Made by a program: the position numbers and the translations under genes. A stretch of DNA of 61,341 bases, counting the filler. It is 9 parts of 9 records of this genome, joined end to end, with 100 filler letters (N's around TTAATTAATTAA, not from the genome) between each part and the next. Parts side by side here need not be neighbours in the genome. Positions count along the whole stretch, not along the records: positions 35,493 to 52,470 come from SRR20825010_2741; 8 more parts are not named here. The stretch is one strand, 5' to 3'. Of the stretch, positions 25,776-51,726 are shown piece by piece. The notes under the pieces are model-generated. The model was not told where the DNA came from. It worked only from the letters and a program-made list of their open reading frames with translations, and searched no databases. Each line of letters begins with the position of its first letter. Position 1 is the stretch's first letter.

Positions 25776-25799
25776 TATTTTCTTTACAAAAGAGTTATT

Positions 25800-25826: not shown

Positions 25827-25842
25827 GTTTTAATTTAGTTGT

Positions 25843-27018: not shown

Positions 27019-27077
27019 CTACTACTTAATAAATTAAGCAAACCCTTGGCAATACCCTATGGGTTCCCAATAATTGG

Positions 27078-27085
27078 TATATTTG
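27078..27085 (+). promoter_or_regulatory. Bacteroidetes -7 promoter element
   Basis: TATATTTG upstream of mtaB. Confidence 0.55.
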
Positions 27086-27141
27086 CAAACGTTTTGGATT
27101 AATGTATAAGAAACCGAATTCTATTCGGTCTAAGAAGAACA

Positions 27142-27555
27142 ATGATGAAAAAAAAGGTCGCTTTCTATACCTTGGGCTGCAAGCTCAATTTTTCAGAAAC
27201 TTCAACCATAGCTAGAGATTTGGTAGAGGAGGGCTTTGAGCGCGTGGAATTTTCTGAAAATGCGGATATGTATGTCATCAATACCTGTTCCGTTACGGAA
27301 AATGCGGATAAGCGATTTAAGTCGATCGTCAAGCAAGCACAAAAAAGCAATCCAAATGCATTTGTTGCAGCCATAGGCTGCTATGCACAGCTTAAACCAG
27401 AAGAATTGGCCGCGGTAGACGGTGTTGATCTTGTTTTGGGGGCCACCGAAAAATTTAAGATTGCCGATTATGTCAATGATCTTTCCAAAAACGATTTTGG
27501 CCAGGTACATTCCTGTGAAATAGAAGAGGCCGATTTTTATGTGGGCAGTTATGCC
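27142..27555 (+). CDS. mtaB: tRNA t6A37 methylthiotransferase MtaB (3' truncated)
   Basis: TLGCKLNFSE, INTCSVTENAD, GCYAQL. Confidence 0.9.
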
Positions 27556-27655
27556 NNNNNNNNNNNNNNNNNNNNNNNNNNNNNNNNNNNNNNNNNNNNT
27601 TAATTAATTAANNNNNNNNNNNNNNNNNNNNNNNNNNNNNNNNNNNNNNNNNNNN
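27556..27655. other. Artificial contig linker
   Basis: N44-TTAATTAATTAA-N44. Confidence 0.98.
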
Positions 27656-30987: not shown

Positions 30988-31087
30988 NNNNNNNNNNNNN
31001 NNNNNNNNNNNNNNNNNNNNNNNNNNNNNNNTTAATTAATTAANNNNNNNNNNNNNNNNNNNNNNNNNNNNNNNNNNNNNNNNNNNN
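30988..31087. other. Artificial contig linker
   Basis: N44-TTAATTAATTAA-N44. Confidence 0.98.
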
Positions 31088-35392: not shown

Positions 35393-35492
35393 NNNNNNNN
35401 NNNNNNNNNNNNNNNNNNNNNNNNNNNNNNNNNNNNTTAATTAATTAANNNNNNNNNNNNNNNNNNNNNNNNNNNNNNNNNNNNNNNNNNNN
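35393..35492. other. Artificial contig linker
   Basis: N44-TTAATTAATTAA-N44. Confidence 0.98.
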
Positions 35493-37002
<1,510 letters not shown>

Positions 37003-37022
37003 TCAGTGTAGGGATCAGGATC

Positions 37023-37070
37023 CTATCGATCAAGTTGTTTTTATAAATTTACGCTATAGGCTATGCCAAT
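37023..37070 (-). promoter_or_regulatory. Possible OxyR site upstream of katG
   Basis: ATTG-N7-CTAT and ATAG-N7-TTAT elements (minus strand); only a partial match to the ATAG-N7-CTAT repeat. Confidence 0.35.
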
Positions 37071-37353
37071 AGACATTGTTTGCCTGCAGCATTTCAAGAA
37101 TATGTCTGTGGCGGTTTGCAGTAAACAGGCAACTTGAAATTGATCCGTTCAGTTTCATCACCACAATGCATGCGCCCATGGCAGCATCTTTCCATGAATT
37201 CCACCAAAGGCATTTTCTGTGCTCAGGGATAACCCCAGTGCGTTTTTATTAAATAATAATCAAGGTTATGGATCAATTTAAGTTATTGATTTATAAATAC
37301 TGTTAACTTTTTTTATTGAGTTCAGAGTTCGGTATGTCTAAAAAAATACTTGA

Positions 37354-37369
37354 ACTCCGAATTCAGAAT
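37354..37369. promoter_or_regulatory. Palindromic operator copy 1 (consensus ATTCTGAATTCAGAAT)
   Basis: ACTCCGAATTCAGAAT, 14/16 match, upstream of the Rieske/PQQ operon. Confidence 0.65.
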
Positions 37370-37449
37370 ATATATATTAAACCCACAACAAAAATATAGC
37401 TTTCTCGCCCCCAAGCGGGTACCGCATGAAACAAGGAAGGAGATGACAC

Positions 37450-38052
37450 ATGCAAAAAGAGGACAAGTGTTGCGCCTGTGCAGGAGCGCAACCTTTTGAT
37501 GATTCACGCCGCAGGGTGTTCAAAATCGCGGCAGCAGGTATTGCTGCCAGCTTTGGTGTTGCTGGCAATGCCAGCTTGGCATCGGCGGATGCTGCAATCG
37601 ACGGCCCGGTGGCTGGCGACTTTCTGGTGGATGACAACGCCGAAGGCGAGATCAAGCCGATCACGATTGACGACCTTGCTCCACTGAAGCCACTGATTGT
37701 TTATCCGCTCAACCCAAAGACAAACAAGCCCAAAACCGATTCCCGCTTGAATCGCATTGTGTTGATTCGCATGAACAGGGCTGATTTTAGCGACGAATCC
37801 AAAAAAGTCGCTGCAGGCGACGTGTTGGCATTCTCGTCCATTTGCACACATCAAGGTTGCGACGTGAAAACCTGGATGTCGGCTGACAAGGCATTGGCCT
37901 GTTTTTGTCATGGCTCGAAGTTCCAGCCGCTGGATGCGGGTGCCGTGGTTGTTGGCCCTGCCACGCGTGCCATGCCTGTGTTGCCAATCCGTTTGGACGG
38001 CAAAAAAATTGTGGTGGCCGGCGGATTTAAAACACCGCCGGGTGTGGGTTGA
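37450..38052 (+). CDS. Tat-exported Rieske [2Fe-2S] protein (AioB/QcrA-like)
   Basis: SRRRVFK twin-arginine signal; CTHQGC and CFCHGS motifs; GPATRAMP. Confidence 0.9.
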   Translation: MQKEDKCCACAGAQPFDDSRRRVFKIAAAGIAASFGVAGNASLASADAAIDGPVAGDFLVDDNAEGEIKPITIDDLAPLKPLIVYPLNPKTNKPKTDSRLNRIVLIRMNRADFSDESKKVAAGDVLAFSSICTHQGCDVKTWMSADKALACFCHGSKFQPLDAGAVVVGPATRAMPVLPIRLDGKKIVVAGGFKTPPGVG

Positions 38053-38129
38053 TTGCCCGCTGTTGTAAACGACATTAAAACCAGGCGGACGAAAAGTTCG
38101 CACACTTTCCATTTTTGGAGGAGACGACA

Positions 38130-39860
38130 ATGAAGGCTTTTGCGAAGTTGGTGTTTGCGGGTGCTGTGGCGATGAGCCCGTTTGCATCTGCGCATTCTGC
38201 GTTGGGCGACTACACGCCTGTGACTGATGAGCGGTTGAAAAATCCCGAACCAAAAAACTGGTTGCAATATCGGGGCAATTACCAGGGGTGGGGCTACAGC
38301 CCGCTGAACCAGGTCACCGACAAGAACGTTGAGAAACTGAAGCTTGCATGGGCCTTTACCACTGGGCAAACGGAAGGGCATCAGGCCCCTCCGATTGTGA
38401 ACAATGGCTATATGTTTGTGACCACGCCGGGCGGGCAGCTGATTGCCTTGAATGCCAAAACCGGTGAAGAGTTGTGGCGTCACCGCAAGACACTTCCGGG
38501 CGAAATGCTGCAACTTCACCCCACCAACCGTGGTGTGGCTTTGTATGGCGACAAGGTGTACGTTGCCACCGTGGATTGTTTCCTGATTGCGCTGGATGCC
38601 AAAACCGGCAAGGTGGTGTGGGAAAAGCCCGTGGGTGACTGGAAGGCCCTGCAGTACATGACCCTGGCGCCATTGGCGGCCAAAGGGAAAATCATGGTGG
38701 GGTCTTCGGGCGGTGAAACCGGTGTGCGTGGTTTTGTTGCAGCCTATGATGCTGAAACAGGTGAAGAAGCCTGGCGAACCTACACCACCGCAGCCCCAGG
38801 CGAACCCGGTGGCGACACCTGGCCCGGTGAAACCTACAAGAACGGTGGCGGCAGCATCTGGATTACCGGTACTTATGATGCCGACACCAACCTGGCCTAT
38901 TGGGGCACCGGCAACCCTGCACCCTGGCCAACCGAGGGACGCAAGGGTGACAACCTGTACACCAGCTCCGTGATTGCACTGGACGTAGACACCGGCAAGT
39001 TGAAGGGCTACCACCAATACACGCCCAACGATGCCTGGGACTGGGATGAAGTGTCAGCCCCTTTGCTGATTGATACCAAGGTGAACGGCAAAATGACCAA
39101 GACTGCAGTTCATGCCGGACGCAGTGGTTACCTTTGGGTGCTTGAACGCACCAGCAGCAAAATCAATTTCGTCAATGCCTATCCCTTCGTGCACAACAAT
39201 GTGTTCACGTCGATCGATCCAAAAACCGGCCGCCCCACTTACGATAAATCCCGTACACCTGGCATGGGCAAGGCTGTGTCGTTTTGCCCCTCGCTGTGGG
39301 GTGGAAAGGATTGGCCGCCAGAAGCGTACAACCCAAAAACCGGTTTGTTGTACATCCCTGCAAACGACAACCTGTGTGCAGAACTGCCCCCGGCAGAACC
39401 CACCAAATACAAGAAAGGTGAGTTGTACATTGGTTACCCGATTGAAGGCATTTTGACCGGGCTTCGCTGGAAAGATGGCAAGCAACCCAAAACCATGGGT
39501 GAAATTCAAGCTTGGGATCTGAACACAGGCAAGCAAGTGTGGGCGCACAAGTTCCCCACTTTCAACTGGGGGCCTTTGATGACCACCGCAGGCAACCTGG
39601 TGTTTGGTGGCGGCACGAATGACCGCATGTTCCGTGCTTTCAATGCAAAAACCGGCAAATTGCTGTGGGAAACAGCAACGCCTTCCGGTGTAACCGGTGT
39701 GCCCAGCACGTTTGAAGTGGACGGTGAGCAGTACATTGCCGTGCTTTCAGGTTGGGGCGTGGATTCACAGCGCATGCAGGGCAACGTGGATCGATTGACA
39801 GGCAAAACCACCGTGGTGCCGCAGGGTGGCACGGTCATGGTTTACAAGCTTCAAAAATGA
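38130..39860 (+). CDS. PQQ-dependent alcohol/polyol dehydrogenase, possibly lanthanide-dependent
   Basis: Sec signal; YSPLNQV, GGETGVRG, GTGNPAPW, WDWDEV; W-docking repeats (TGEELW, TGKVVW, TGKQVW, TGKLLW). Confidence 0.92.
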   Translation: MKAFAKLVFAGAVAMSPFASAHSALGDYTPVTDERLKNPEPKNWLQYRGNYQGWGYSPLNQVTDKNVEKLKLAWAFTTGQTEGHQAPPIVNNGYMFVTTPGGQLIALNAKTGEELWRHRKTLPGEMLQLHPTNRGVALYGDKVYVATVDCFLIALDAKTGKVVWEKPVGDWKALQYMTLAPLAAKGKIMVGSSGGETGVRGFVAAYDAETGEEAWRTYTTAAPGEPGGDTWPGETYKNGGGSIWITGTYDADTNLAYWGTGNPAPWPTEGRKGDNLYTSSVIALDVDTGKLKGYHQYTPNDAWDWDEVSAPLLIDTKVNGKMTKTAVHAGRSGYLWVLERTSSKINFVNAYPFVHNNVFTSIDPKTGRPTYDKSRTPGMGKAVSFCPSLWGGKDWPPEAYNPKTGLLYIPANDNLCAELPPAEPTKYKKGELYIGYPIEGILTGLRWKDGKQPKTMGEIQAWDLNTGKQVWAHKFPTFNWGPLMTTAGNLVFGGGTNDRMFRAFNAKTGKLLWETATPSGVTGVPSTFEVDGEQYIAVLSGWGVDSQRMQGNVDRLTGKTTVVPQGGTVMVYKLQK

Positions 39861-39997
39861 TGTAACCGCCCCTGGTGTGCGCCGCTGAGCAGAGCAGGAC
39901 GCGCACCGGTCGAGGCGGCTTCGCTTCTTCGTTTGATTCTGGATTCATGCAGTGAAATTCATGCTGCAGGGGATCCCTTTACCTGGAGGTTCAGGCC

Positions 39998-41434
39998 ATG
40001 AGCAGCAAAACATATAAAAACTTCATCAACAACCAGTTTGTTGATTCGTCCTCGGGGGCAACAGTCGAGGTTCGCAATCCAGCCGACAATGCTGTGCTTG
40101 CAGTGGTGCCCGATTCCAGCCGTGAAGATGTTGACCGTGCTGTGCAGGCTGCAAAAAAAGCGCAGCCCGCCTGGGAAAAACTTCCCGCCATTGAGCGCGC
40201 CAATCACATTCGCGCCATTGCCGCGAAAATTCGCGAGAACAAAGAACGCATTGCCAAAGTGATTACGCAAGAGCAGGGAAAAATTCTTGATCTGGCCCGC
40301 GTGGAAGTGGATTTCACCGCCAACTACATGGACTACATGGCCGAGTGGGCACGCCGCATTGAAGGCGAGATTATTCAAAGCGATCGACCCGGCGAAACAA
40401 TTTTTCTGCACCGCAGGCCCATTGGTGTAACAGCGGGTATTTTGCCCTGGAATTTTCCGTTCTTTCTGATTGCCAGAAAGATGGCACCGGCGCTGGTGAC
40501 GGGCAACACCATTGTGATCAAGTCAAGTGAGGAAACGCCGATTAATGCATTTGAATTTGCCGAGCTTGTTGCGCAATCCGGCTTGCCTGCCGGCGTGTTC
40601 AACCTGGTAAGCGGTGGTCGTGAGGCGGGTGGTATTTTGTCCAGCCACACCGATGTGGGTTTGATCACTTTCACTGGCAGCGTGCAAACCGGCATCCGGA
40701 TCATGGAAGCGGCTGCGAAAAACCTGACCCGAGTGAACCTGGAATTGGGTGGCAAGGCACCAGCCATTGTGCTCAATGATGCGGACCTGGAATTGACTGC
40801 AAATGCTTTGCACGGATCCAGAATTTTGAACACCGGGCAAGTGTGCAATGCAGCCGAGCGTGTGTATGTTCAGCGCGGCATTGCCGACGCACTGGTGGAT
40901 CGTGTCAGCAAGCTGATGGCATCGACCCGTTATGGCAACCCCATGACAGAAAGTGGCTTGCAAATGGGCCCACTGATCAACCGGGGTGGCCTGGACAAAG
41001 TGGCCAGCCTGGTGGGCAAGGCGCGCGAGCAGGGTGCTGAAGTAATTACTGGTGGCAGGATTGCCGACCGCGAAGGTTTCCACTACGAGCCCACCGTGGT
41101 CGCGGGTTGCAAACCCGACATGGACATCATGACCCAGGAAATTTTTGGCCCCGTGCTGCCGATCCAGATTGTGGACGATCTGGACGAAGCGATTGCCCAT
41201 GCCAACAACTCCGAGTTTGGCTTGACCTCGTCGATTTTCACGCGCGACCTGAATGCCGCCATGAAAGCCACCACCGAACTTCGCTTCGGTGAAACCTACG
41301 TGAACCGTGAGCATTTTGAGGCCATGCAAGGCTTCCATGCGGGGCGCAGGAAATCAGGCATTGGTGGTGCCGATGGCAAACACGGCCTGTATGAATTCAT
41401 GGAAACCCATGTGGTGTACATGCAAACCCATTAA
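39998..41434 (+). CDS. aldA: AldA-like NAD-dependent aldehyde dehydrogenase (lactaldehyde/glycolaldehyde type)
   Basis: EWARRIEGEIIQSDRPGE, PWNFP, LELGGK, GQVCN, AMQGFHAGRRKSGIGGADGKHGL. Confidence 0.88.
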   Translation: MSSKTYKNFINNQFVDSSSGATVEVRNPADNAVLAVVPDSSREDVDRAVQAAKKAQPAWEKLPAIERANHIRAIAAKIRENKERIAKVITQEQGKILDLARVEVDFTANYMDYMAEWARRIEGEIIQSDRPGETIFLHRRPIGVTAGILPWNFPFFLIARKMAPALVTGNTIVIKSSEETPINAFEFAELVAQSGLPAGVFNLVSGGREAGGILSSHTDVGLITFTGSVQTGIRIMEAAAKNLTRVNLELGGKAPAIVLNDADLELTANALHGSRILNTGQVCNAAERVYVQRGIADALVDRVSKLMASTRYGNPMTESGLQMGPLINRGGLDKVASLVGKAREQGAEVITGGRIADREGFHYEPTVVAGCKPDMDIMTQEIFGPVLPIQIVDDLDEAIAHANNSEFGLTSSIFTRDLNAAMKATTELRFGETYVNREHFEAMQGFHAGRRKSGIGGADGKHGLYEFMETHVVYMQTH

Positions 41435-41493
41435 CCCAAAGCAGTTGAGCAACCCCAACGAGCCCAGACTCACAATTGATAAAAGGAATAAAC

Positions 41494-42351
41494 ATGAGAC
41501 AGCAATCTTTTCTGAAACGATCCGTCAAAACCCTGATCCACAGCGTTGCATTGGTGGTTTTGGGGGCAACTGCCACCGGTGCTCAGGCCATTGATCGTGG
41601 CTTTATTGCACCCCATGAATACGCACTGCCTACCGATTTCAAACCATTCAATATTTTTGCGCAGTATGCTTTCCTGCAGCAAAACGACACGGTCTACGAT
41701 GCCAATGGCAACAAGGCCCAGGGCCCGGGTTCGGAGTTGCTGGTGGGTCTTTCCAAGTATGTTCGCTTGTGGACGCCAGAATCGAACAAGAACATTGGTT
41801 TGGCGTGGGAAGTGATTGTTCCTGAAATAGGAATTCGCGACAAAAACACCAGTTTCTCAACTGGCGGTTTTGGCGACCCCATCACCGGCTTTGCCATTTG
41901 GACCAAGCCTTCCAGTCAATGGGTATTGGGTGCCGACATGTTTGTTTCCGTGCCAGTGGGTGACGAGGCCGTGGGCGGTGGTGATCGCTGGGACTTGCTG
42001 GGCTCCATTTTCTGGGATGCACAATATGGCAAGTTAAACTACACCGGTAATCTGGGCTACCACTTCAATGGTTCATCTGCCCGTGGCACCGCACCCGGTG
42101 ATTATTATCACCTGAACAACCGCTTTGGTTACCGGGTGTCGGATTTGATCGAGCCCTATGTGGGTATTGATTACCAGACCACGGATGGCGTGGCTGGCGC
42201 ACCAGACAGCAATGAAACTGCCTTGGCCGCAGGCATGATGTTCCACATGTATGACCATGCGTCCATCGCGTTGCACTACCAGAAGGGCATCGATGGCGAA
42301 TCCGTTGCACAATCTGATAGTCTGAACCTGAGATTTGTTTACGTATTTTAA
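41494..42351 (+). CDS. Outer-membrane beta-barrel uptake channel (phenol MetA-pathway/SphA-like family)
   Basis: Signal peptide, GFGDP motif, alternating beta-strand pattern, C-terminal Phe (RFVYVF). Confidence 0.75.
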   Translation: MRQQSFLKRSVKTLIHSVALVVLGATATGAQAIDRGFIAPHEYALPTDFKPFNIFAQYAFLQQNDTVYDANGNKAQGPGSELLVGLSKYVRLWTPESNKNIGLAWEVIVPEIGIRDKNTSFSTGGFGDPITGFAIWTKPSSQWVLGADMFVSVPVGDEAVGGGDRWDLLGSIFWDAQYGKLNYTGNLGYHFNGSSARGTAPGDYYHLNNRFGYRVSDLIEPYVGIDYQTTDGVAGAPDSNETALAAGMMFHMYDHASIALHYQKGIDGESVAQSDSLNLRFVYVF

Positions 42352-42467
42352 TTGATTCACCCCTGTTGGAAAGACACCGGTTTTCATCTTGGTTAACCGC
42401 TGCACACAACCTCCAATTTGGTTTGAATCAAGGTGAGGTGTCTTTCTTTTTTTACCAAGGAGTACGC

Positions 42468-43640
42468 ATGGATTTTTCCATTTCCCCGGAACTGCTGGCG
42501 CTTCAGGAGGAGGTTCGCCGATTCATCGCCGAGCAGGTCATCCCGCTGGAAACGGATCCGCGGCAAACTGCACACGGCCCCTCTGAGGACTTGCGCAACG
42601 AGTTGGTGGCCCGGGCACGAAAAGCCGGTTTGCTGACCCCGCATGCACCGCGGGAATTGGGCGGTTTGGGCTTGAGCCACGTTGAAAAAGCAGTGGTGTT
42701 TGAAGAGGCGGGTTATTCCACCCTTGGCCCCACGGCCATGAATATTCATGCCCCCGATGAAGGCAATATTCACTTGATGGAAGTGGTGGCAACACCGGCG
42801 CAAAAAGAGCGTTGGTTAAAGCCGCTGGTGCAGGGAAAAATACGGTCCTGCTTTGCAATGACCGAGCCTGCGCCCGGTGCAGGTGCCGATCCTTCCATGT
42901 TGCAAACCACGGCGGTGAAAGATGGTGATCACTATGTGATTAACGGCGACAAGTGGTTTATCACAGGCGCTGAGGGCGCAAGCTTCGCCATCATCATGGC
43001 CAAGATGGAAGATGGCACCGCCACCATGTTTTTAAGTGATATGAATGCCCCCGGTGTTGAATACGTGCGCACCATGGATGCGATGGACGCCTGTTTCACG
43101 GGTGGACATGGCGTGTTGCGCTTCAACAATCTGCGCGTTCCCGCAGCAGACGTGCTGGGCGAAATTGGCAAGGGTTTCCGTTATGCACAGGTGCGACTTG
43201 CACCCGCACGCTTGACCCATTGCATGCGCTGGCTTGGACAAGCCCGAAGAACACACGAAATTGCACTGGATTACGCACGCAAAAGGCAGGCGTTTGGCGT
43301 GCAGTTGGGTGCGCATGAAGGCATCAGCTTCATGCTGGCCGACAATGAAATTGATTTGCACACAGCAAGGTTGCACATTTGGCACACCGCATGGATGCTG
43401 GATCGCGGCGAACGTTGCAATTTCGAATCAAGCCGCGCGAAGGTCGCCTGTTCCGAAGCCGAATGGCGCGTGGTGGATCGCAGCGTGCAAATTCTGGGTG
43501 GTCAGGGTGTGACAGGTGAAACCATTGTGAGCCGAATATTCACCGACATGCGTGCCTTTAGAATTTACGATGGCCCCAGCGAAGTACACCGCTTCAGCAT
43601 GGGTAAAAAAATTGTGGCTGGCCGGGAACGATCTGCATGA
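42468..43640 (+). CDS. Acyl-CoA dehydrogenase, ACAD10/11-LvaC type
   Basis: APDEGN, RSCFAMTEP, AQVRLAPARLTHCMR, RIYDGPSEVH. Confidence 0.88.
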   Translation: MDFSISPELLALQEEVRRFIAEQVIPLETDPRQTAHGPSEDLRNELVARARKAGLLTPHAPRELGGLGLSHVEKAVVFEEAGYSTLGPTAMNIHAPDEGNIHLMEVVATPAQKERWLKPLVQGKIRSCFAMTEPAPGAGADPSMLQTTAVKDGDHYVINGDKWFITGAEGASFAIIMAKMEDGTATMFLSDMNAPGVEYVRTMDAMDACFTGGHGVLRFNNLRVPAADVLGEIGKGFRYAQVRLAPARLTHCMRWLGQARRTHEIALDYARKRQAFGVQLGAHEGISFMLADNEIDLHTARLHIWHTAWMLDRGERCNFESSRAKVACSEAEWRVVDRSVQILGGQGVTGETIVSRIFTDMRAFRIYDGPSEVHRFSMGKKIVAGRERSA

Positions 43641-44404
43641 ACAATTTATTCAGCCTGAACAACAAGGTGGTCATGGTCACCGGCGCATCCAGTGGCCTGG
43701 GCAGGCACTTCGCCGTGATGCTGGCCAATGCTGGGGCGCACGTGGTGCTGACCGCACGCAAATCTGACAACCTGAACGAGGTGATTGCAGAAATTCACGC
43801 TGCAGGGCAGCGCGCCACAGCCATTGCGCTGGACGTCAGCAGTGCTGCATCGGTGAAGAAGGCCATTGCCAGCACCATTGAGCAGGTGGGTGTGCCGGAT
43901 GTGTTGGTGAACAACGCAGGGCAGTCGATTGCCAAACCCATGCTGGAGCAGACAGAAGAAGACTGGGACCAGATCATGGATACCAACCTGAAAGGTTGCT
44001 GGCTGATGGCCACTGAACTGGCTCGCGCACTGGTGGCCGAAGGAAAGCCGGGCGCCATTGTGAACGTGGCATCCATTCTGGGTGAAAGGGTGGGGGGCGC
44101 AGTGGGGCCCTATGCCATTTCCAAGGCAGGTGTGGTGCAGGCCACCAAAGCCATGGCGCTTGAATTGTCGCGTTACAGCATCCGTGTGAATGCGCTGTTG
44201 CCGGGCTATGTGGCCACCAACCTGAACCGTGATTTTCTGAAAAGCGAACTGGGCGAGAAATTGCGCATGCGAATTCCATCGCGCCAGTTTTGTTCGCTTG
44301 AAGACCTGGATGGGCCTTTGCTGTTGCTGGCCTCCGATGCCGGTTCCGGCATGACGGGTGCGTGCGTTGCAGTGGATCGCGGGCACCTGGTCAGCGGGCT
44401 GTAG
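43637..44404 (+). CDS. SDR oxidoreductase (LvaD-like ketoacyl-CoA reductase)
   Basis: TGASSGLG, NNAG, YAISK; ATGA overlap with the upstream gene. Confidence 0.88.
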   Translation: MNNLFSLNNKVVMVTGASSGLGRHFAVMLANAGAHVVLTARKSDNLNEVIAEIHAAGQRATAIALDVSSAASVKKAIASTIEQVGVPDVLVNNAGQSIAKPMLEQTEEDWDQIMDTNLKGCWLMATELARALVAEGKPGAIVNVASILGERVGGAVGPYAISKAGVVQATKAMALELSRYSIRVNALLPGYVATNLNRDFLKSELGEKLRMRIPSRQFCSLEDLDGPLLLLASDAGSGMTGACVAVDRGHLVSGL

Positions 44405-44414
44405 GGCAGTAGCG

Positions 44415-45428
44415 ATGAACAAAATTCAACAGGAAGCAATTGAGCGTTTTGTGACACAGGTAGCGGGTGCTGCCCATGTGCACATTGCCCAGGTGAAGTT
44501 GTTGTCAGGCGGTGCTGTTCAGGAAAACTGGTTGCTTGACCTGTTGATTGAAGGCGGCCCGCACCAGGGCACCCTGGAAGCTGTGTTGCGATGTGACTCC
44601 CCCACGGCCGGAGTTGCAATAAGCCATGGCCGCGCCCAGGAATTTGCCCTGCTCAACACTGTGTTTGAAGCCGGTGTTACCGTGCCGCAACCCCTGTGGC
44701 TGTGCGAAGACCTGTCCGTGTTTGGCCGCCCCTTTTTCCTGATGCGCCGCATTCGCGGAACGGCGGCAGGCCATGTGCTGGTGAAAGACCAAGGCGTTAA
44801 AAACAGGGCTGAATTGGCACATCGGCTGGGGCAGGAGCTGGCGAGAATTCATTCCGTGCGCCCGCCGAATGCTGCACTGAATTTCATGCCATTGCATGGT
44901 GAATCGCCTGCGGCACACAGCGTAAAACAATACCGTTCGTTTCTGGATCGCCACCACACGCCTTACCCGGCGCTGGAATGGGGGCTTCGCTGGCTTGAAC
45001 GCCACGCCCCACCCAAGGGTTTGCTCACTTTGACCCATGGCGACTTTCGCACCGGGAATTACATGGTGGACGAGCAGGGTTTGACCGGCATTCTGGATTG
45101 GGAATTTGCAGGCTGGGGCGACCCGCTGGAAGACCTGGGCTGGTTTTGTGCAAAATGCTGGCGCTTCGGCCAAAACGACATGCAGGCCGGTGGTATTGGT
45201 TCTCGGGAAGATTTTTACGCAGGTTATGAAGCCGAATCACGGCGCACAATTGAGCGCAGCGAGGTTCATTACTGGGAAGTGATGGCCCACATGAAATGGG
45301 CAATTATTGCGATTCAGCAGGCCGAACGCCATTGTTCTGGTGAAGAGGATTCGCTGTTGCTGGCCCTGACCGGGCACATTGTGCCCGAGCTTGAATGGGA
45401 AATATTGAACATGACGGAGCACAACTGA
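44415..45428 (+). CDS. APH-family phosphotransferase (LvaA-like hydroxyacyl-CoA kinase)
   Basis: LSGGAVQENW, HGDFRTGN, LDWEFA, GDPLEDLGW. Confidence 0.85.
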   Translation: MNKIQQEAIERFVTQVAGAAHVHIAQVKLLSGGAVQENWLLDLLIEGGPHQGTLEAVLRCDSPTAGVAISHGRAQEFALLNTVFEAGVTVPQPLWLCEDLSVFGRPFFLMRRIRGTAAGHVLVKDQGVKNRAELAHRLGQELARIHSVRPPNAALNFMPLHGESPAAHSVKQYRSFLDRHHTPYPALEWGLRWLERHAPPKGLLTLTHGDFRTGNYMVDEQGLTGILDWEFAGWGDPLEDLGWFCAKCWRFGQNDMQAGGIGSREDFYAGYEAESRRTIERSEVHYWEVMAHMKWAIIAIQQAERHCSGEEDSLLLALTGHIVPELEWEILNMTEHN

Positions 45429-45802
45429 TGCGTGAACAACCCACAGGTGTTGCCCTTTTGCAATGCGCGCGCGATGTGCTGAAAATCAAAGTATTGCCCT
45501 TGCTGGGTGGTGATGCCAAACGCGACGTGTTGATGGTGATGAATGCCATGTCGATCGCGCAGCGCGAACTGGGGGCGGGCAGCGCACCCACTGAAACAGA
45601 ACAGCAATCCCTTTCCCAGTTGTTGGGTGAACCAGTGTTTGACCTGCAACTGGCCAATCGCACCCTGGGTGCACGCATTCGTGCTGGTGAAGCTGACCCT
45701 GGGCGGGAAGAACGCACAGCAGTGTTGGCCCATTTGCGCACGATTGGTCGCCACCGTTTGCAGGCCAGTAACCCCAAGGTGTTGAAGGCTGACAACACAT
45801 GA
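45428..45802 (+). CDS. DUF6285 / LvaB-like small protein
   Basis: MREQPTG..LL..AR, NAMSIAQRE, RIRAG, L..SNPK; TGATG overlap with the kinase gene. Confidence 0.78.
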   Translation: MREQPTGVALLQCARDVLKIKVLPLLGGDAKRDVLMVMNAMSIAQRELGAGSAPTETEQQSLSQLLGEPVFDLQLANRTLGARIRAGEADPGREERTAVLAHLRTIGRHRLQASNPKVLKADNT

Positions 45803-46470
45803 GCACCCTGGTGTTGATGCGCCACGGGCAGGCCTCATTTGGCGCTGCAAAATACGATGCGCTGACCCGTCAAGGTGAGTCGCAAGCACGCGCCACAGGC
45901 CTGTGGATGCGCCAGCATGGCATTGCGCCAACAGCCCTGGTGCATGGGCCCCGGCAACGGCAAATTCATTCTGCAAAGCTGCTGCTTGAGGGCGCACGCA
46001 TGGCGTGCACACCCGCCGAAGTCAATGCTCTGGATGAGTTCGCCGAGGGCGAAGAAATTTTTGCCGCAGCCGAAAAACATTTCGGCAGACCCATGTGGGA
46101 ATCGATCGGCAGAAGCAGTACGGATGTACTGCGCGACTACGATGCTGCCTGTCGCGCCTGGTCGCTTGACGAACTGGAAATTCCAGGGTGCTTGTCGATC
46201 GATGAGTTCCGTGCGGAGGTTTGCCAGTGGTTCGAGCAAACCACTGGCACTGCGGATTCCGGGCAGTGTGTACTTGCGGTTACTTCAGCGGGTGTAATCG
46301 CGACGCTTGTGTGCGAAGTAATGGGTTTGCCCAACAGCAAATGGCATTCATTGTTGCGGGTGATCCGCAATGCATCGCTGACCGATATTCTGTACTCCAA
46401 AGGGCGAAGCAGCTTGCTTGCCTTTAATGGAGTGGGGCATCTTCCCGATGCCCTTACTTCCTCTGTGTAA
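45799..46470 (+). CDS. Histidine phosphatase family protein
   Basis: LMRHGQASFG..YD.L, LDEF, VTSAGVI, FNGVGHL. Confidence 0.88.
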   Translation: MSTLVLMRHGQASFGAAKYDALTRQGESQARATGLWMRQHGIAPTALVHGPRQRQIHSAKLLLEGARMACTPAEVNALDEFAEGEEIFAAAEKHFGRPMWESIGRSSTDVLRDYDAACRAWSLDELEIPGCLSIDEFRAEVCQWFEQTTGTADSGQCVLAVTSAGVIATLVCEVMGLPNSKWHSLLRVIRNASLTDILYSKGRSSLLAFNGVGHLPDALTSSV

Positions 46471-46472
46471 CT

Positions 46473-47189
46473 TCAGGCTCGCATCAGTTTTCGTTTGCCC
46501 GCAGGTGCTTCTTCTTGTGCCGGGTTGTTGGCCATGTTTTCCATCAAGCGCGCAATCATGAAGTCTGCAGCCTGCGTAATGTGCTCACGGCCCAGGCGTT
46601 CAGCGGCGGCACCATCGCCTTCCACAATGGTTTCAAGCATGGCCTCGTGCTGGCTCCACACGTTGCGCGGCTGTTCATCGCTTTTCAACACTTCACCCAT
46701 CACGCGTTGGGTGTTGAGCCAGTGCGATTCCATGGCGGGGGGAATCAGGGGGTTCTCGGCCAGGTGGTAAATGAAGTGGTGAAAGGCCATGTCCGCAGCA
46801 ATCATCTCCCGGAATGAATGGTTGCTGACCGCTTTCAAACCGGCCTTGATCAGGGCATGACCCTTAACTTTGGCATTTTTGCTGTTCAGTTCTGCGGCAC
46901 GCCGACAGGCCAGCCCTTCGATCACCGCCCGCATGTCGTACATATTGCGAACGTAGTTTGGGTCCAGCGGCGCAACCAACAGGCCGCGGCCCGGCGCATC
47001 CACCAACACACCTTGGTTTCGCAAAAGCGCAAGTGCCTGCTGAATGGGTTGCCGGGACACACCAAGTTCCTTGGCCAGTTGTTCTTGGATGATTCGGGAG
47101 CCAGAGCGCAGTGTGCCCCCGGAAATTTCTCCCAGCAGGACTTTGTAGACCTGTTCCACAAGCTTTGGCGTTGTTTCGATCGCTTTCAT
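46473..47189 (-). CDS. GntR/FCD (VanR-like) transcriptional regulator
   Basis: LAKELGVSRQPIQQAL wHTH; DMAFH and QHEAM FCD motifs. Confidence 0.92.
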   Translation of the reverse strand: MKAIETTPKLVEQVYKVLLGEISGGTLRSGSRIIQEQLAKELGVSRQPIQQALALLRNQGVLVDAPGRGLLVAPLDPNYVRNMYDMRAVIEGLACRRAAELNSKNAKVKGHALIKAGLKAVSNHSFREMIAADMAFHHFIYHLAENPLIPPAMESHWLNTQRVMGEVLKSDEQPRNVWSQHEAMLETIVEGDGAAAERLGREHITQAADFMIARLMENMANNPAQEEAPAGKRKLMRA

Positions 47190-47230
47190 GAAATACGTGC
47201 CCCAATCAACAGAATATATAAGGAATTAAA

Positions 47231-48970
47231 TCACACTTTCTTTGAATTCGGTGTGCAACGCCAATCGCGTTCCGCAGTGTCCCAGGCCGCCAGTGCCTGA
47301 TAGTCGGGAACCCAGGCCAAGCCTGATTTTGCGTCTGATGATACCGCTTCTGGCGTGACCAGTACATCCAGCAGGGCTGGCCTGTTTGCCATGGCCCGTT
47401 CAATGGCACCTTCAAGGTCTTCCACACGTTCCACACGCTCTGAGTACAACCCAAAAGCTTTTGCCATGGATGCATGGTCGGCAAACTGCAAGCGGGTGCC
47501 GCACACCGTTCCGTGTGTTTCCTGCTGGTCCCGAACCTCGATAGCCCATGCACCGTTGTTGGCAACCACGATCAACACCGGTGCCTTGTGACGGGCAGCG
47601 GTGTCCATTTCCATGGCGTTGAATCCGAATGATCCATCCCCAGTGGCCACCAGCACAGTGTGGTCGGGCTTTGCAAGACTGGCCGCAACACCAAAGGGCG
47701 TGCCCACGCCAATGCAGCCCAGTGAGCCTGGATCCAGATACGTGCTTGCAGGCAAACCAACCCGCGCAAAGCTGAGAAAATCGCCACCGTCTGCCACCAC
47801 CACTGATTTTTCTGGCAAGGCCTGTCGCAAGGCATACAGCAGCCTGTTGGGGTGCATTAATCCGTCTTTGCCGTTGGGTGCGTTGCGCATGCTTTCCAGC
47901 AGCTTGGCCGATCGGTCTTTGTGTTGTTGATGAAGCCCGTTGATCCACTTCAGATCGGTTGCTGGTGCGCGATCGCCTGCACACGCCAGAATGTCTTCAA
48001 TGGCCAGACGGGGGGTGGAAAACAGTTCCACCACGCCACGCCGGTTGTCGCGAAGTTCGCTGGCACAGTCGGCAATTCTTACGAATTCGGCTTGCCCAAA
48101 CACAGCCGGTGAACCATAGGCCAACTGGAAATCAAGTTTGCGACCAATGGTTAAAATAACGTCGGCCTGCCCCATCACTGCGCCGCGCATGGCTGCAACC
48201 ACGCTGGGGTGTTCTTCACTGACCAGGCCCCGGCTTTCACCCGTGTCCAGGTAGGCCGCCTGCAGTCGATCCAACAGCTTTGTCAGTGCAGGGCCTGCGC
48301 CCTGCGCGCCACGGCCGGTGATGACCAAGGGGCGCTTGGCCGACCACAAACGTTCCATGGCTTGCTCGATGGCAGCCTGCGGTGCTCCAAATTCCTGACG
48401 GTTTTTCGGGGCAAGGTGTTCTTGCAGAACCACTGCTTGCGGCACCTCACTGCGCAGCGTGTTCACGGGAAAGTCCAGGTAGACCGGACCGGGCTCGCCA
48501 TGGTGACCCAGTGCGCGTGAAACCGCTTCATCCAGTTCTTGCAGAACCAGCTCTGGTTCCCGAACTGTTTTGGCATATCGGGTGATGGATCGAACCAGGT
48601 CGGTGTGCACCATGTCTTGCAGGGCACCCCGGTTTTCCTGAAGGGTAGGGGGGGTGCCTGAAAGCACCAACACCGGTACGCGGGCCACATTGGCATTGGC
48701 AATGCCTGTCATGGCATTGGTCACGCCTGGGCCTGCCGTAACCAGTGCCACGCCAAACTGGCCTGTCAATTGCGCTTCTGCGTGGGCCATGTAAACGGCG
48801 GCCCTTTCGTCGCGCACATCCACTATTTGAATGCCTTCGGCGTGCAGCCGCATCCAGACGGGCATGATGTGCCCGCCGCACAGGGCATAAACCCTTTTAA
48901 TGCCGCGCGCCTTCAAAAACCGCGCGATAAGTGCGGCGGCGCTGTGCTCTGAAATTTGCATGGTGGCCAT
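47231..48970 (-). CDS. ThDP-dependent enzyme, 2-hydroxyacyl-CoA lyase-like
   Basis: LCGGHI, RDERAA, TAGPG, GDGSFG...NNGAWAIE ThDP motif; C-terminal SSDAKSGLAWVPDYQAL. Confidence 0.82.
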   Translation of the reverse strand: MATMQISEHSAAALIARFLKARGIKRVYALCGGHIMPVWMRLHAEGIQIVDVRDERAAVYMAHAEAQLTGQFGVALVTAGPGVTNAMTGIANANVARVPVLVLSGTPPTLQENRGALQDMVHTDLVRSITRYAKTVREPELVLQELDEAVSRALGHHGEPGPVYLDFPVNTLRSEVPQAVVLQEHLAPKNRQEFGAPQAAIEQAMERLWSAKRPLVITGRGAQGAGPALTKLLDRLQAAYLDTGESRGLVSEEHPSVVAAMRGAVMGQADVILTIGRKLDFQLAYGSPAVFGQAEFVRIADCASELRDNRRGVVELFSTPRLAIEDILACAGDRAPATDLKWINGLHQQHKDRSAKLLESMRNAPNGKDGLMHPNRLLYALRQALPEKSVVVADGGDFLSFARVGLPASTYLDPGSLGCIGVGTPFGVAASLAKPDHTVLVATGDGSFGFNAMEMDTAARHKAPVLIVVANNGAWAIEVRDQQETHGTVCGTRLQFADHASMAKAFGLYSERVERVEDLEGAIERAMANRPALLDVLVTPEAVSSDAKSGLAWVPDYQALAAWDTAERDWRCTPNSKKV

Positions 48971-49049
48971 GGTGATGTCTCCTCATTTTTCTGGTGCCGG
49001 TCTAAAACCGTGGTTGCAAACTCGTCAATTTCGATTAGAATAATATCGC

Positions 49050-49065
49050 ATTCTGAATTCGGAAT
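49050..49065. promoter_or_regulatory. Palindromic operator copy 2
   Basis: ATTCTGAATTCGGAAT, 15/16 match, in the divergent lyase/ligase promoter. Confidence 0.7.
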
Positions 49066-49115
49066 ATAGAATTTAAAGCTATATTCTTTCAAATAAAGTT
49101 GAGGAGACTGGCAAC

Positions 49116-50684
49116 ATGAGTCAATTGATGACTATTTCCGATGCGGTACAAGCCCATGCCAGGCTGCGCCCTGCAACGCTGGCAGCCCGTGATTCGCGCC
49201 GCGCACTGTCGTACCGGCAGCTTGACGAGCGCGCAGGCAAACTGGCTTCTGCATTGATTGATCTTGGGCTTACACGCGGGGACCGCGTGGCGGTGCTGGC
49301 CTACAACTGCGTGGAATGGATGGAAATGTACGTGGGGCTTGCGCGTGCGGGTCTGGTGGCTGTGCCTTTGAATTTCCGTTTGAGTGGGCCTGAAATTGAA
49401 TACATTTTGCTGGATTGCAAAACGAGTTGCATGATTGCCGGCCCGGATTTCACAGCCGTTGTGGACTCCATTCGCGACAAGCTGGAATTTCCCGAAGCAC
49501 GATTCATTGCCTTGGGCGAGACGGCTCCGTCGGGTTGGCTGTCTTATGAATCAATGGTGTCGCAGGCCCCCTGGCCCCGCGAATTTGAGCCGGTCGCTGC
49601 CGATGAAATGTGTGCCCTGATGTACACATCCGGTACCACGGGCCGACCCAAAGGTGCTGTTCGCCAGCACGAGGGCAGTACCCTGATTGCCATGGCCACG
49701 GCGCTGGAAATGGGCTTTACACACGCAGACATTGCCTTGCTGGTGATGCCCCTGTGCCATGCAAATTCCCTCTACTTTGCAAACACATTTCTGCACACGG
49801 GCGGTGCCTGCATTATTGACGACAGCAAAAGCTTCAACCCCGAACATTTGCTGCGCACTTTGTCTGAAGAGAAGGTGACCTTCACCTCGCTGGTGCCTAC
49901 GCACTACATCATGATTTTGTCTTTGCCTGATGAGGTGAAAGCAAAATACGACATGAGCACCGTGGGCAAGTTGCTGGTTTCCTCGGCACCTGCACGAAAA
50001 GACACCAAACTTGCAATCCTGGATTATTTTAAAAACGGCAAGCTGTATGAACTGTACGGTTCAACCGAGGCTGGGTGGGTCACCTTGCTGCGCCCGGAGG
50101 AGCAAATTTCCAAGCTGGGTTCCGTGGGGCGTGAATGGGCTTGTAGCGGCGCCATTCGCCTGCAGGATGAGCATGGCAATGAGGTGCCGGATGGTGAGGT
50201 GGGCGAGCTTTTTTCGCGAACCTCGTATGTGTTCAAAGGGTACTGGCAAAACGATGAAAAAACCAAAGAAGCTTTTCGCGGTGCCTGGTGTTCAGTGGGG
50301 GACATGGCGCGGCGCGATCAGGATGGTTACATTTGGTTGGTCGACCGGAAAAGCAACATGATCATCAGTGGTGGCGAGAACATTTACCCCTCGGAAGTGG
50401 AGGCGGTGGTGGGCGCGCACCCCAAGGTGAAAGATGTGGCGGTGATCGGTGTGCCGCATGAAAAATGGGGTGAAACAGTACAGGCGGTGGTGGTGCCACA
50501 TGTGGGCCAGCAGCTTGACGAGACCGAGCTGAAAAGCTGGTGCCGGGAGCGGCTTGCGACATTTAAATGCCCCACATCGATTGTGTTCATCCAGGACGAT
50601 GAAATGCCCCGCACGGCTACAGGCAAGATTCTTCATCGTATACTACGGCAAAAGTTAGGCGGCACGAACACCGCTGCCGCATAG
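49116..50684 (+). CDS. Acyl-CoA synthetase (AMP-forming)
   Basis: YTSGTTGRPKG, YGSTE, GD...DRK..MIISGGENIYP.EVE, PRTATGK. Confidence 0.92.
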   Translation: MSQLMTISDAVQAHARLRPATLAARDSRRALSYRQLDERAGKLASALIDLGLTRGDRVAVLAYNCVEWMEMYVGLARAGLVAVPLNFRLSGPEIEYILLDCKTSCMIAGPDFTAVVDSIRDKLEFPEARFIALGETAPSGWLSYESMVSQAPWPREFEPVAADEMCALMYTSGTTGRPKGAVRQHEGSTLIAMATALEMGFTHADIALLVMPLCHANSLYFANTFLHTGGACIIDDSKSFNPEHLLRTLSEEKVTFTSLVPTHYIMILSLPDEVKAKYDMSTVGKLLVSSAPARKDTKLAILDYFKNGKLYELYGSTEAGWVTLLRPEEQISKLGSVGREWACSGAIRLQDEHGNEVPDGEVGELFSRTSYVFKGYWQNDEKTKEAFRGAWCSVGDMARRDQDGYIWLVDRKSNMIISGGENIYPSEVEAVVGAHPKVKDVAVIGVPHEKWGETVQAVVVPHVGQQLDETELKSWCRERLATFKCPTSIVFIQDDEMPRTATGKILHRILRQKLGGTNTAAA

Positions 50685-50696
50685 CCGGTTTACGAC

Positions 50697-50722
50697 ATGG
50701 CGACACAGGTCGCCATTTTTTT
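50697..50722 (+). terminator. Rho-independent terminator
   Basis: ATGGCGAC-ACAG-GTCGCCAT followed by T6. Confidence 0.8.
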
Positions 50723-50743
50723 CAACCTGATTCTCTTATCCAG

Positions 50744-51715
50744 ATGCAACAAATTTTTCTGGTTACTTTGCCGTTTTTTGCCCTGATTCTTTGTGGCTAT
50801 CTGGCCACCCGGGGGCGTCTGTTGCCTTTGGGCGCGATCCCCGGGCTGAATGCATTTGTGTTGTATTTCGCTTTGCCCAGCATGCTGTTTCAGTTTGCGT
50901 CCAATATGGATGTTGCTGAACTGTTTGATCCGCACACGATATTTGTTTATATGCTATGTGCTTTGCTGATGGTGTTTCTGACGGTGTTCACGACCCGCCG
51001 CGGCAACACCAACTGGAACAATGCCGCTTTCGGTGCACTGGTTGCGGCATTTCCCAATTCCGGTTTCATGGGCATGCCAATACTGGTTTCGCTGGTGGGT
51101 GCCGGCGGCGTTGGGCCTGCGGTGGTGTCCATTTCAATCGACATGATCATTACTTCATCGCTGTGCATTGCTTTGTCACGTTTGGGGCAGCGTGGTGATG
51201 GCGGTGCCGTGGAGGCTGCACGAAAAGCCATGAAGGGTGTGTTGCTGAATCCACTGCCCTGGGCGGTGGTGTTGGGCGCAATTTGTTCGGCCACTGCATT
51301 TCGTTTTTATGAGCCGCTTGACCAGATCATCAAGATGTTTGCCAATTCCTGTTCGCCCATCGCCCTGTTCACCATTGGTGCCATGCTGGCTCGTCCGCCC
51401 GCCACAGCTGCGGTGGATTCCCCACCCGCCGGACGTTTCAAACTGGGCGATATCCATTTGATCGTGGTGTACAAATTGATTGTTCACCCGCTGCTGGTGC
51501 TGGGTGTGGGCTATGTGTACACGCAAATGGGTTTTGATTTGTCGCCGCAGGCGCTTACCGTGCTGGTGCTTGTGGCGGCGCTGCCAAGTGCAAGCAGCAT
51601 CACCGTGCTTGCGGAAAAGTTTGAAGCGGATTCCAGGCGAATTGCGCAGATCGTCCTGTTTTCAACCGCCATTGCATTTTTAACTTTTTCTACGGCAGTG
51701 AAGTGGTTGCTGTGA
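50744..51715 (+). CDS. AEC family transporter
   Basis: LNAFVLYFALP, FPNSGFMGMP, NP, PIALFTIG, KLIVHP, ALPSA. Confidence 0.9.
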   Translation: MQQIFLVTLPFFALILCGYLATRGRLLPLGAIPGLNAFVLYFALPSMLFQFASNMDVAELFDPHTIFVYMLCALLMVFLTVFTTRRGNTNWNNAAFGALVAAFPNSGFMGMPILVSLVGAGGVGPAVVSISIDMIITSSLCIALSRLGQRGDGGAVEAARKAMKGVLLNPLPWAVVLGAICSATAFRFYEPLDQIIKMFANSCSPIALFTIGAMLARPPATAAVDSPPAGRFKLGDIHLIVVYKLIVHPLLVLGVGYVYTQMGFDLSPQALTVLVLVAALPSASSITVLAEKFEADSRRIAQIVLFSTAIAFLTFSTAVKWLL

Positions 51716-51726
51716 CCTGCTAAAAA

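Follow-up and report, generated by a model that had tools for sequence, protein, structure and literature searches.

A gene for a Rieske [2Fe-2S] protein with a predicted signal for twin-arginine translocation (Tat) and a gene for a dehydrogenase dependent on pyrroloquinoline quinone (PQQ) lie side by side in the window, i.e. the whole stretch of 61,341 nucleotides (nt) analysed here, and these two genes form a conserved module. The reading favoured here, with a probability of roughly 0.6, is that the Rieske protein serves as the dedicated periplasmic electron acceptor of the PQQ dehydrogenase inside a catabolic island for diols and 2-hydroxyacids, such that the two proteins would bind and electrons would pass from the dehydrogenase to the Rieske protein. 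The window is a record of nine contigs joined end to end and the pair sits on a single 17-kb contig of it (35493-52470), so that the absence of cytochromes can be stated only for this contig. Positions are those of the window unless a locus label (L and a number) precedes them, and the two genes are as follows:

37450..38052, + strand: gene for the Tat-exported Rieske [2Fe-2S] protein, an open reading frame (ORF) of 200 amino acids (aa) matching Pfam PF00355 at E 1.9e-9
38130..39860, + strand: gene for the PQQ-dependent dehydrogenase, methanol/ethanol family, 576 aa from the ATG at 38130, with GGAGGAG upstream

Conservation of the pair was assessed in one genome per species with an alignment of the Rieske family; the best 80 loci were retained and the window proteins were compared with them by tblastn. 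Loci with a full-length relative of the Rieske protein, comprising both the N-terminal subdomain and the cluster domain, had a dehydrogenase of the same clade adjacent and on the same strand in 42 of 46 cases, compared with none of the 34 loci that matched the cluster domain only (mostly QcrA of Actinomycetota), and the pairing therefore exceeds chance. The dehydrogenases of the 42 positive loci are 45-81% identical to that of the window, the Rieske gene comes first in 41 of them and the order is reversed in the remaining one (L042), and the spacer between the two genes is mostly 12-108 nt where the dehydrogenase start is clear. The four loci without adjacency were L036, L038, L045 and L050, the contig of L038 stopping 20 nt past the match. 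According to the record titles, the positive loci derive from Betaproteobacteria (22), Alphaproteobacteria (8), Gammaproteobacteria (3) and unclassified Pseudomonadota (6), together with single loci labelled Verrucomicrobiota, Rokuibacteriota and Actinomycetota, of which the Actinomycetota locus is from a metagenome-assembled genome (MAG) labelled Bifidobacterium that is probably mis-binned. Cultured carriers named in the titles include Azoarcus sp. KH32C, Leptothrix discophora, Zoogloea species, Denitromonas ohlonensis, Neptuniibacter pectenicola, Methylobacterium species, Alteromonas macleodii Te101 and Paracoccus sp. Arc7-R13. The pair also occurs on four annotated isolate plasmids, with the Rieske gene first in Azoarcus sp. 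KH32C (pAZKH) and Roseomonas marmotae and the dehydrogenase gene first in Alteromonas macleodii Te101 and Paracoccus sp. Arc7-R13, under the generic annotations 'Rieske 2Fe-2S domain-containing protein' and 'PQQ-dependent dehydrogenase, methanol/ethanol family'. On the Roseomonas and Alteromonas plasmids the pair is kept although the surrounding genes differ.

A reverse scan, of metagenome contigs against an alignment of the dehydrogenase, yielded 80 loci with 57-76% best-segment identity (55-73% by tblastn), 33 of which were without a Rieske gene; 8 of these have fewer than 700 nt upstream, leaving 25 evaluable negatives. The Rieske gene lies upstream of the dehydrogenase in 47 of the 72 evaluable loci, and in all 12 of the loci with at least 60% tblastn identity (L081-L092; 63-76% best-segment identity). 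The original prediction had proposed a count of genomes with this adjacency as a check, and the count now available (42/46 genome loci, 47/72 metagenome loci and 4 plasmids) is strongly in its favour. In a FastTree phylogeny of 117 dehydrogenases, from which one row was dropped and in which L042 was wrongly labelled as outgroup owing to a 50% identity cut-off, Rieske-linked dehydrogenases span the whole clade, basal branches included. Of the 24 rows without a Rieske gene, 20 group together as a derived subclade with a long stem (0.52, support 100) and the other four are scattered, the linked or unlinked state requiring only 4 changes. The two proteins also diverge in step: across 74 pairs their pairwise distances have a correlation of r = 0.83, a value that none of 2000 permutations reached, which shows that both proteins were inherited together.

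The features of the Rieske protein on which its classification depends are these:

37450..37587, + strand: predicted Tat signal peptide, residues 1-46, with S-R-R-R-V-F-K at 19-25, a hydrophobic stretch and A-S-A before D47
37843..37860, + strand: Rieske box I, C132-T-H-Q-G-C137, with ligands Cys132 and His134 and disulfide partner Cys137
37900..37917, + strand: Rieske box II, C151-F-C-H-G-S156, with ligands Cys153 and His154 and disulfide partner Cys151, followed by K-F158

A twin-arginine Rieske protein with the boxes CTHQGC and CFCHGS had been called as the first gene of the operon, and the ORF at 37450-38052 agrees with this. In an alignment of 18 sequences, C132, H134, G136, C137, C151, C153 and H154 are invariant, i.e. 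all four cluster ligands together with both extra cysteines. Position 156 is Ser in the window protein and Ser or Thr in near relatives, and position 158, a Tyr in Rieske proteins of bc1 complexes, is here a nearly invariant Phe, so that just one of the two classical potential-raising hydrogen-bond donors is present. Of the features relevant to the description 'high-potential', the extra Cys pair and Ser156 are present, and Phe stands in place of the second donor. In the leader, Arg20 of the Tat motif is invariant, and the R-R pair is found throughout the 18 sequences except in the three most distant ones, which read R-R-T/S/A. Small-x-small sites follow a short hydrophobic stretch upstream of the mature domain in the relatives as well; cleavage would take place before Asp47, and the protein is probably released as a soluble periplasmic protein after export in the folded state.

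The best solved relatives of the Rieske protein are the bc-complex Rieske proteins 3fou and 1nyk (E 2e-27, residues 55-199), followed by actinobacterial QcrA subunits, and subunits of b6f complexes and AioB align to it at the cluster loops only (E ~1e-8). It falls below the cut-off of every NCBIfam Rieske model, and judged by fold, motifs and these models it is a bc-type protein, yet one that lies outside the AioB and bc1/QcrA families. The family is small, with 61 near-length matches in 5.8 billion clustered proteins and, in a set of 1.84 billion, 184 representatives at E<=1e-30; the best 150 representatives are 115-293 aa long, indicating stand-alone Rieske proteins. A separate observation concerns the n-region of the leader, in which most near relatives carry cysteines (C-C-A-C, C-G-C or C-x-x-C) some ten residues before the twin arginines, as does the window protein (37468-37482, residues 7-10), a feature that is unusual in signal peptides.

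Two motifs of the dehydrogenase bear on the choice of acceptor and of metal:

38511..38534, + strand: loop Q-L-H-P-T-N-R-G, residues 133-140 of the 581-aa ORF, replacing P-C-C-D-V-I-N-R-G of 6zcv
39033..39050, + strand: A-W-D-W-D-E, residues 307-312, with the catalytic Asp and the second Asp, aligned to G-W-D-F-D-G of 6zcv

The dehydrogenase passes the family model TIGR03075 (score 577.4 bits, cut-off 480.05, covering residues 36-548), matches PF01011 at E 9.5e-81 and has a leader of the Sec type, not Tat. Its ATG lies 77 nt downstream of the Rieske gene with no terminator-like site between, and the longest ORF (581 aa) starts at a TTG at 38115. Among solved structures, 6zcv/6zcw comes closest (E 3.9e-109); its deposited name is 'quinoprotein ethanol dehydrogenase', and we take it to be PedH of Pseudomonas putida. 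Identity to 6zcv is only about 40% as read by eye from the alignment. The metal-site Glu, Asn and two Asp aligned to 6zcv are all kept (G-G-E-T-G, G-T-G-N-P-A-P-W and W-D-W-D-E), and in mature numbering E169, N235, D277, R107 and R304 are invariant among 32 clade sequences, the R of N-R-G being retained. The vicinal Cys-Cys disulfide ring, which is typical of the methanol/ethanol PQQ family but not demanded by the family model, is absent, the loop in its place being one residue shorter than in 6zcv. The form x-x-H-x-T-x-R-G is found at this site in every high-scoring segment pair of the clade that covers it (~120 loci) and C-C in none, and the loop His (H103, mature numbering) is invariant among the 32 sequences. 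PMC12997753 links this ring to the passage of electrons from reduced PQQ (PQQH2) to cytochrome c550. The D-x-D motif is given as the signature of lanthanide (rare-earth)-dependent enzymes in PMC11845868. It is kept across the clade save for four basal members with W-D-W-A-A/G, and the window enzyme is, on this motif, probably lanthanide-dependent. The clade as a whole is distinct, with the disulfide ring absent and the lanthanide signature present in most members. In five loci (L009, L019, L030, L037 and L039) the dehydrogenase is broken over at least two frames, which may reflect frameshifts or MAG assembly errors, and L161 contains one in-frame TAG.

The original prediction also held that the dehydrogenase lacks a haem motif and that the island encodes no cytochrome c, cytochrome b or molybdo-subunit, and both statements are borne out. 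The dehydrogenase contains no CxxCH and no cytochrome Pfam domain, and was thereby rejected as a quinohaemoprotein (type II) alcohol dehydrogenase, which would have a C-terminal cytochrome c domain. None of the other genes of the 17-kb contig was called as a cytochrome c, cytochrome b or molybdo-subunit by Pfam or NCBIfam, and no ORF with CxxCH and at least 90 aa lies on the contig. When the window contig was taken together with 44 loci (8 kb to either side; 3077 ORFs of at least 60 aa), CxxCH was present in only 19 ORFs and no CxxCH ORF family is common to more than two of the 45 loci, i.e. the type I quinoprotein pattern of an operon-encoded cytochrome c has no conserved counterpart here. 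In the 18.6 kb around the pair on pAZKH no cytochrome is annotated, one hypothetical protein having a sub-threshold match to cytochrome P460, and no other conserved periplasmic redox enzyme was found near the pair. The phrase 'instead of a cytochrome c' can be upheld only as far as the 17-kb contig reaches. A separate canonical bc1 Rieske protein was identified in all five isolate genomes with the pair (at least 203 bits with TIGR01416, compared with 27-40 bits for the operon copy) and PqqC was above its cut-off in the same five, so the paired Rieske protein is an additional paralogue in organisms able to make PQQ.

Under the proposed mechanism, the substrate alcohol would reduce PQQ to PQQH2, the Rieske protein would then dock at the active-site funnel and take the two electrons one by one, in the role that cytochrome cL, c550 or XoxG plays for other family members, and a c-type cytochrome or oxidase encoded elsewhere would re-oxidise the Rieske protein, a cytochrome being the likeliest oxidant. 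With a potential near +90 mV for the PQQ/PQQH2 couple and of about +150 to +300 mV for Rieske clusters that bear the disulfide, the transfer from PQQH2 to the Rieske cluster would be downhill. The loss of the Cys-Cys ring and the lack of a neighbouring cytochrome gene fit a change of acceptor. A more specific and rather improbable version is that the Rieske protein oxidises protein-bound PQQH2 directly, its exposed cluster-ligand His entering the funnel that the loss of Cys-Cys has opened and taking up electron and proton together. The oxidation of ubiquinol by the bc1 Rieske protein at the Qo site provides the model for such a step, of which the pair would be a soluble two-protein version, and it would make this the first iron-sulfur acceptor for any PQQ dehydrogenase.

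Several observations weigh against the Rieske protein being the dedicated acceptor. Adjacency and co-divergence show co-inheritance and shared function, not electron transfer, and the mature proteins have opposite net charge in just 32 of 74 pairs, i.e. there is no consistent complementarity. Phe158 may place the redox potential below that of bc1 Rieske proteins and below what 'high-potential' implies. No natural fusion of Rieske and dehydrogenase was found among longer proteins, which is weak evidence, and the best 150 representatives all have 293 aa or fewer. The His loop that replaces Cys-Cys is also present in Rieske-less members of the clade and is therefore not specific to the pairing. 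The 25 evaluable negative metagenome loci contain no ORFs with Rieske motifs and almost no CxxCH ORFs; by sequence appearance, their neighbours are SMP30-like, Tat-signal epoxide-hydrolase-like and isochorismatase-like. The derived subclade of the tree has no adjacent Rieske gene. The orphan Rieske gene L036 belongs to an Acidobacteriota MAG in which a clade dehydrogenase with the same His loop (52-56% identity) is encoded on a different contig, which shows that the two genes can be unlinked. Clade dehydrogenases occur in at least 5 of 151 sampled Acidobacteriota genomes, a lower bound given that only nine candidates were scored per genome; 2 of these 5 carry a full-length family Rieske protein on another contig and the other 3, which are single-contig genomes, have generic cluster-domain matches only, so that the dehydrogenase can exist without this Rieske protein. 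The quinoprotein-Rieske pair of the original prediction is thus partly sustained, as a conserved pairing with co-divergence and no conserved cytochrome c neighbour, and not as a universal partnership, given the Rieske-less subclade and three of five Acidobacteriota.

These exceptions are also what lends some weight to the possibility that the Rieske gene shares the operon and serves another process, as acceptor or donor of a different periplasmic enzyme or as a redox sensor, with the dehydrogenase using a cytochrome c or another carrier encoded elsewhere. The three Acidobacteriota and the derived subclade keep the dehydrogenase with no adjacent or detectable family Rieske protein, which indicates that the enzyme can work with something else, and the His loop is identical with and without the Rieske protein. 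This explanation is nevertheless considered unlikely, in view of the dehydrogenase being the sole constant companion of the Rieske gene (42/46, compared with 19/42 for AldA, 14/42 for the ligase and 9/42 for the lyase), the persistence of the pair in the changed surroundings of the Roseomonas and Alteromonas plasmids and the lack of another conserved periplasmic redox enzyme nearby. Adjacency and co-divergence would suit any tight functional dependence, and the dehydrogenase evidently functions without the Rieske protein in some lineages, both of which are compatible with a Rieske protein whose task is to protect or reactivate the enzyme, for example in keeping PQQ or the PQQ semiquinone poised or in metal or cofactor loading, and which is not its main electron outlet. 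Such a function is distinctly unlikely, as all bc-type electron-transfer features are kept, including the disulfide cysteines and the Pro loop, and the enzyme is without the structure that serves the usual outlet, the Cys-Cys ring. Rieske proteins are also not known to act in the maturation or activation of other enzymes, which counts further against it.

The possibility that the Rieske protein is anchored in the membrane by an uncleaved Tat peptide, as an alternative subunit plugging the dehydrogenase into a bc1-type or other membrane complex, draws on its nearest relatives being subunits of bc complexes and on the retention of the Tat peptide as an anchor in proteobacterial bc1 Rieske proteins. 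It is very unlikely, since the window protein and its relatives have small-x-small cleavage sites behind a hydrophobic stretch that is short, the score with TIGR01416, the model for proteobacterial bc1 Rieske proteins, is below its cut-off (33.9 bits against 97.4), the five of five carrier genomes already have a canonical bc1 Rieske protein and no cytochrome b gene lies nearby. The role of dedicated soluble acceptor remains the reading preferred here.

Transcription and translation signals upstream of the Rieske gene, together with the genes downstream of the pair, are as follows:

37350..37378, + strand: sigma-70-like promoter match TTGAAC-17-TATATT, 9/12 consensus positions
37437..37442, + strand: Shine-Dalgarno-like AAGGAG, 7 nt upstream of the Rieske ATG, read from the sequence
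39998..41434, + strand: AldA-type NAD(P)-dependent aldehyde dehydrogenase, 742.7 bits with NF007497 against a cut-off of 500
41476..42351, + strand: putative outer-membrane beta-barrel channel, 291 aa, with a signal peptide and a C-terminal Phe
42366..46470, + strand: acyl-CoA (coenzyme A) dehydrogenase, SDR, APH-family kinase, DUF6285 protein and histidine phosphatase, by Pfam
46473..51715, both strands: GntR/FCD regulator (-), 2-hydroxyacyl-CoA lyase (-), acyl-CoA ligase (+) and AEC transporter (+), by Pfam

An A+T-rich spacer of 486 nt precedes the Rieske gene on the contig. Sigma-70-like sites in the region number 4, against 3.7 expected from shuffles, so the promoter match is weak evidence, and the scans of the region for terminators and promoters were at chance level overall. 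A sigma-54 promoter upstream of the operon (37179-37193) was rejected, having two mismatches to a pattern that gave 90 matches against 86.5 expected.

Among the neighbours, the AldA-type gene has a relative with at least 61% identity next to the pair at 19 of the 42 genome loci, and the gene is annotated aldA on the Azoarcus and Paracoccus plasmids. The outer-membrane barrel has a relative in 11 of 42 loci and no Pfam or NCBIfam match; its Azoarcus orthologue is annotated 'transporter', with weak, sub-cut-off matches to OMP_b-brl and BBP2. Within 8 kb of the pair, an acyl-CoA ligase was found in 14, a GntR regulator in 12 and a 2-hydroxyacyl-CoA lyase in 9 of the 42 loci, frequencies that are to be read with many of the 42 contigs being short. 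The five-gene module at 42366..46470 adjoins the pair on Azoarcus pAZKH with the same genes in the same order, and presumably resembles the kinase-plus-dehydrogenase systems of 4-hydroxyacyl-CoA catabolism. Gene order within the group at 46473..51715 is likewise the same in Azoarcus, and pAZKH carries the genes of the window island as two blocks in opposite order, followed by formate dehydrogenase genes.

From this context alone, the PQQ enzyme would oxidise a vicinal, possibly branched or tertiary, diol to a 2-hydroxyaldehyde in the periplasm, the AldA-type dehydrogenase would convert this to the 2-hydroxyacid, the ligase would form the CoA ester and the 2-hydroxyacyl-CoA lyase would cleave it to formyl-CoA and a carbonyl compound. 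The formate dehydrogenase genes that follow the lyase block in Azoarcus fit formyl-CoA as a product. The lyase (47231-48970) passes NF058623 with 799.3 bits against a cut-off of 600 over residues 5-571, and this model was built on the lyase of an actinobacterial cluster that, according to PMC7176365, degrades 2-methylpropane-1,2-diol via 2-hydroxyisobutyrate, its CoA ester and a thiamine diphosphate (ThDP)-dependent lyase. That cluster and the window island have in common alcohol and aldehyde dehydrogenases, a 2-hydroxyacid-CoA ligase and a ThDP-dependent 2-hydroxyacyl-CoA lyase, and differ in the alcohol dehydrogenase, MpdB being a cytoplasmic enzyme of another family and the window enzyme a periplasmic PQQ protein whose substrate is deduced from context. 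The island thus suggests a proteobacterial route for vicinal or branched diols that is initiated in the periplasm and ends in a 2-hydroxyacyl-CoA lyase.

Further features were observed around the pair in the window and in other loci. A lyase of actinobacterial type with a divergent CoA ligase occurs in proteobacterial context both in the window (47231-50684) and at L169 15928-18600. In the three loci with the order dehydrogenase then Rieske, the Rieske gene is followed by a gene for a small exported protein (P0062, P0063; L170 5475-5936, L171 4177-4587 and L042 8693-9064), which has conserved cysteines, belongs to no Pfam family and is not present in the window. A 177-aa exported protein with an H-E-C-A-H motif lies directly downstream of the dehydrogenase at L008 4304-4837 and also in L009, L011, L018, L019, L020, L024, L082 and L083, these being Polynucleobacter/Limnohabitans-type loci. 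Upstream of the pair, a 671-aa ORF occurs in 12 loci, e.g. L012 5568-7583 (- strand), and on the Alteromonas plasmid a sigma-54-dependent regulator of the Fis family occupies the place where this ORF lies elsewhere; the window contig has no such gene. At the two ends of the window contig, a catalase-peroxidase-like gene (KatG-like by sequence; 35493-36963, - strand) diverges from the operon, and the start of a TonB-dependent receptor with a Plug domain (52051-52470, + strand) adjoins the island, each broken by the contig end. A function of this receptor fragment in the uptake of lanthanides or of another substrate is only a guess.

The contigs of the window are separated by eight linkers of the form N44-TTAATTAATTAA-N44, placed as follows:

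3424-3523, 6846-6945, 11838-11937 and 16245-16344: linkers
27556-27655, 30988-31087, 35393-35492 and 52471-52570: linkers, continued

The G+C content of the nine pieces is very unequal, from 0.36 to 0.65, and the piece at 16345-27555, with 36-42% G+C against 51-65% in the other pieces, may come from another organism, i.e. from a mixed bin.

If the acceptor role is correct, quinoproteins would have acceptors of a third class and soluble Rieske proteins a function new to them. It would also account for the absence of the Cys-Cys ring from a whole dehydrogenase clade that is common among Proteobacteria of fresh water, soil and the sea, and would offer a tractable soluble system for the transfer of electrons and protons from a quinol to a Rieske cluster. 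The full texts searched gave no paper in which a PQQ dehydrogenase is paired with a Rieske protein, and in excerpts of PMC5023235, bioRxiv 10.1101/2024.09.16.613360, PMC10715153 and PMC11102522 the two proteins are mentioned in unrelated contexts.

Among known systems, ExaA-ExaB and PedE/PedH-PedF (6zcv/6zcw) share fold and family with the window dehydrogenase, together with the metal and PQQ residues and D-x-D, and enzymes of the ExaA/PedH type are likewise periplasmic, without a haem domain and followed by an aldehyde dehydrogenase gene. They differ in the vicinal Cys-Cys, which the window enzyme lacks, and in the cytochrome c gene, in whose place the Rieske gene stands. To our knowledge, c-type cytochromes are the electron acceptors of all soluble PQQ dehydrogenases for alcohols or methanol that have been characterised. 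A cupredoxin takes this place for some quinoproteins, and Rieske electron-transfer proteins are known from bc1 and b6f complexes and from arsenite oxidase. The arsenite oxidase AioAB is similar in being a periplasmic oxidoreductase in which AioB, a Tat-exported bc-type Rieske protein, collects electrons for soluble acceptors, and the cluster region of AioB resembles that of the window protein (8r3a_B, 1.9e-8; 1g8k_B, 2.3e-8). The two systems differ in that the partner of AioB is a molybdopterin subunit riding on the Tat signal of the Rieske protein, whereas the partner in the window is a PQQ propeller exported by Sec. Membership of the AioB family was rejected (TIGR02694, 48.7 bits against 95.65, residues 122-190 only; no molybdo-subunit on the contig), and the parallel with AioB that had been drawn for this DNA is retained as a functional analogy and dropped as a statement of family.

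The bc-complex Rieske proteins, i.e. QcrA and 1nyk/3fou, which we take to be Thermus thermophilus proteins, are nearest over the whole soluble domain and share the box spacing, the disulfide cysteines and the Pro loop. The window protein differs from these subunits in a leader that looks cleavable and not like an anchor, and in the Ser that follows C-x-C-H-G where 1nyk has Gly. Assignment to actinobacterial QcrA was rejected at 85.8 bits against 275 (NF050121), and assignment to the proteobacterial bc1 Rieske family was rejected on the TIGR01416 score given above and the absence of cytochrome b/c1 neighbours.

Membrane glucose dehydrogenase has a His in place of the disulfide ring and passes its electrons to ubiquinone. 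It resembles the window enzyme in being a PQQ propeller without a Cys-Cys ring and with an acceptor other than cytochrome c, and differs in being anchored in the membrane and in reducing a quinone; the window enzyme was rejected as a member of its family (TIGR03074, 202.7 bits against 832.65). The closest functional analogy to the Rieske-dehydrogenase pair is methylamine dehydrogenase with amicyanin, which differs in its cofactor (tryptophan tryptophylquinone), its fold and its cupredoxin carrier and is unrelated in sequence. In that system the periplasmic quinoprotein gives its electrons to amicyanin, a small non-haem carrier of single electrons that is dedicated to it and encoded in its operon, and amicyanin then reduces a cytochrome c.

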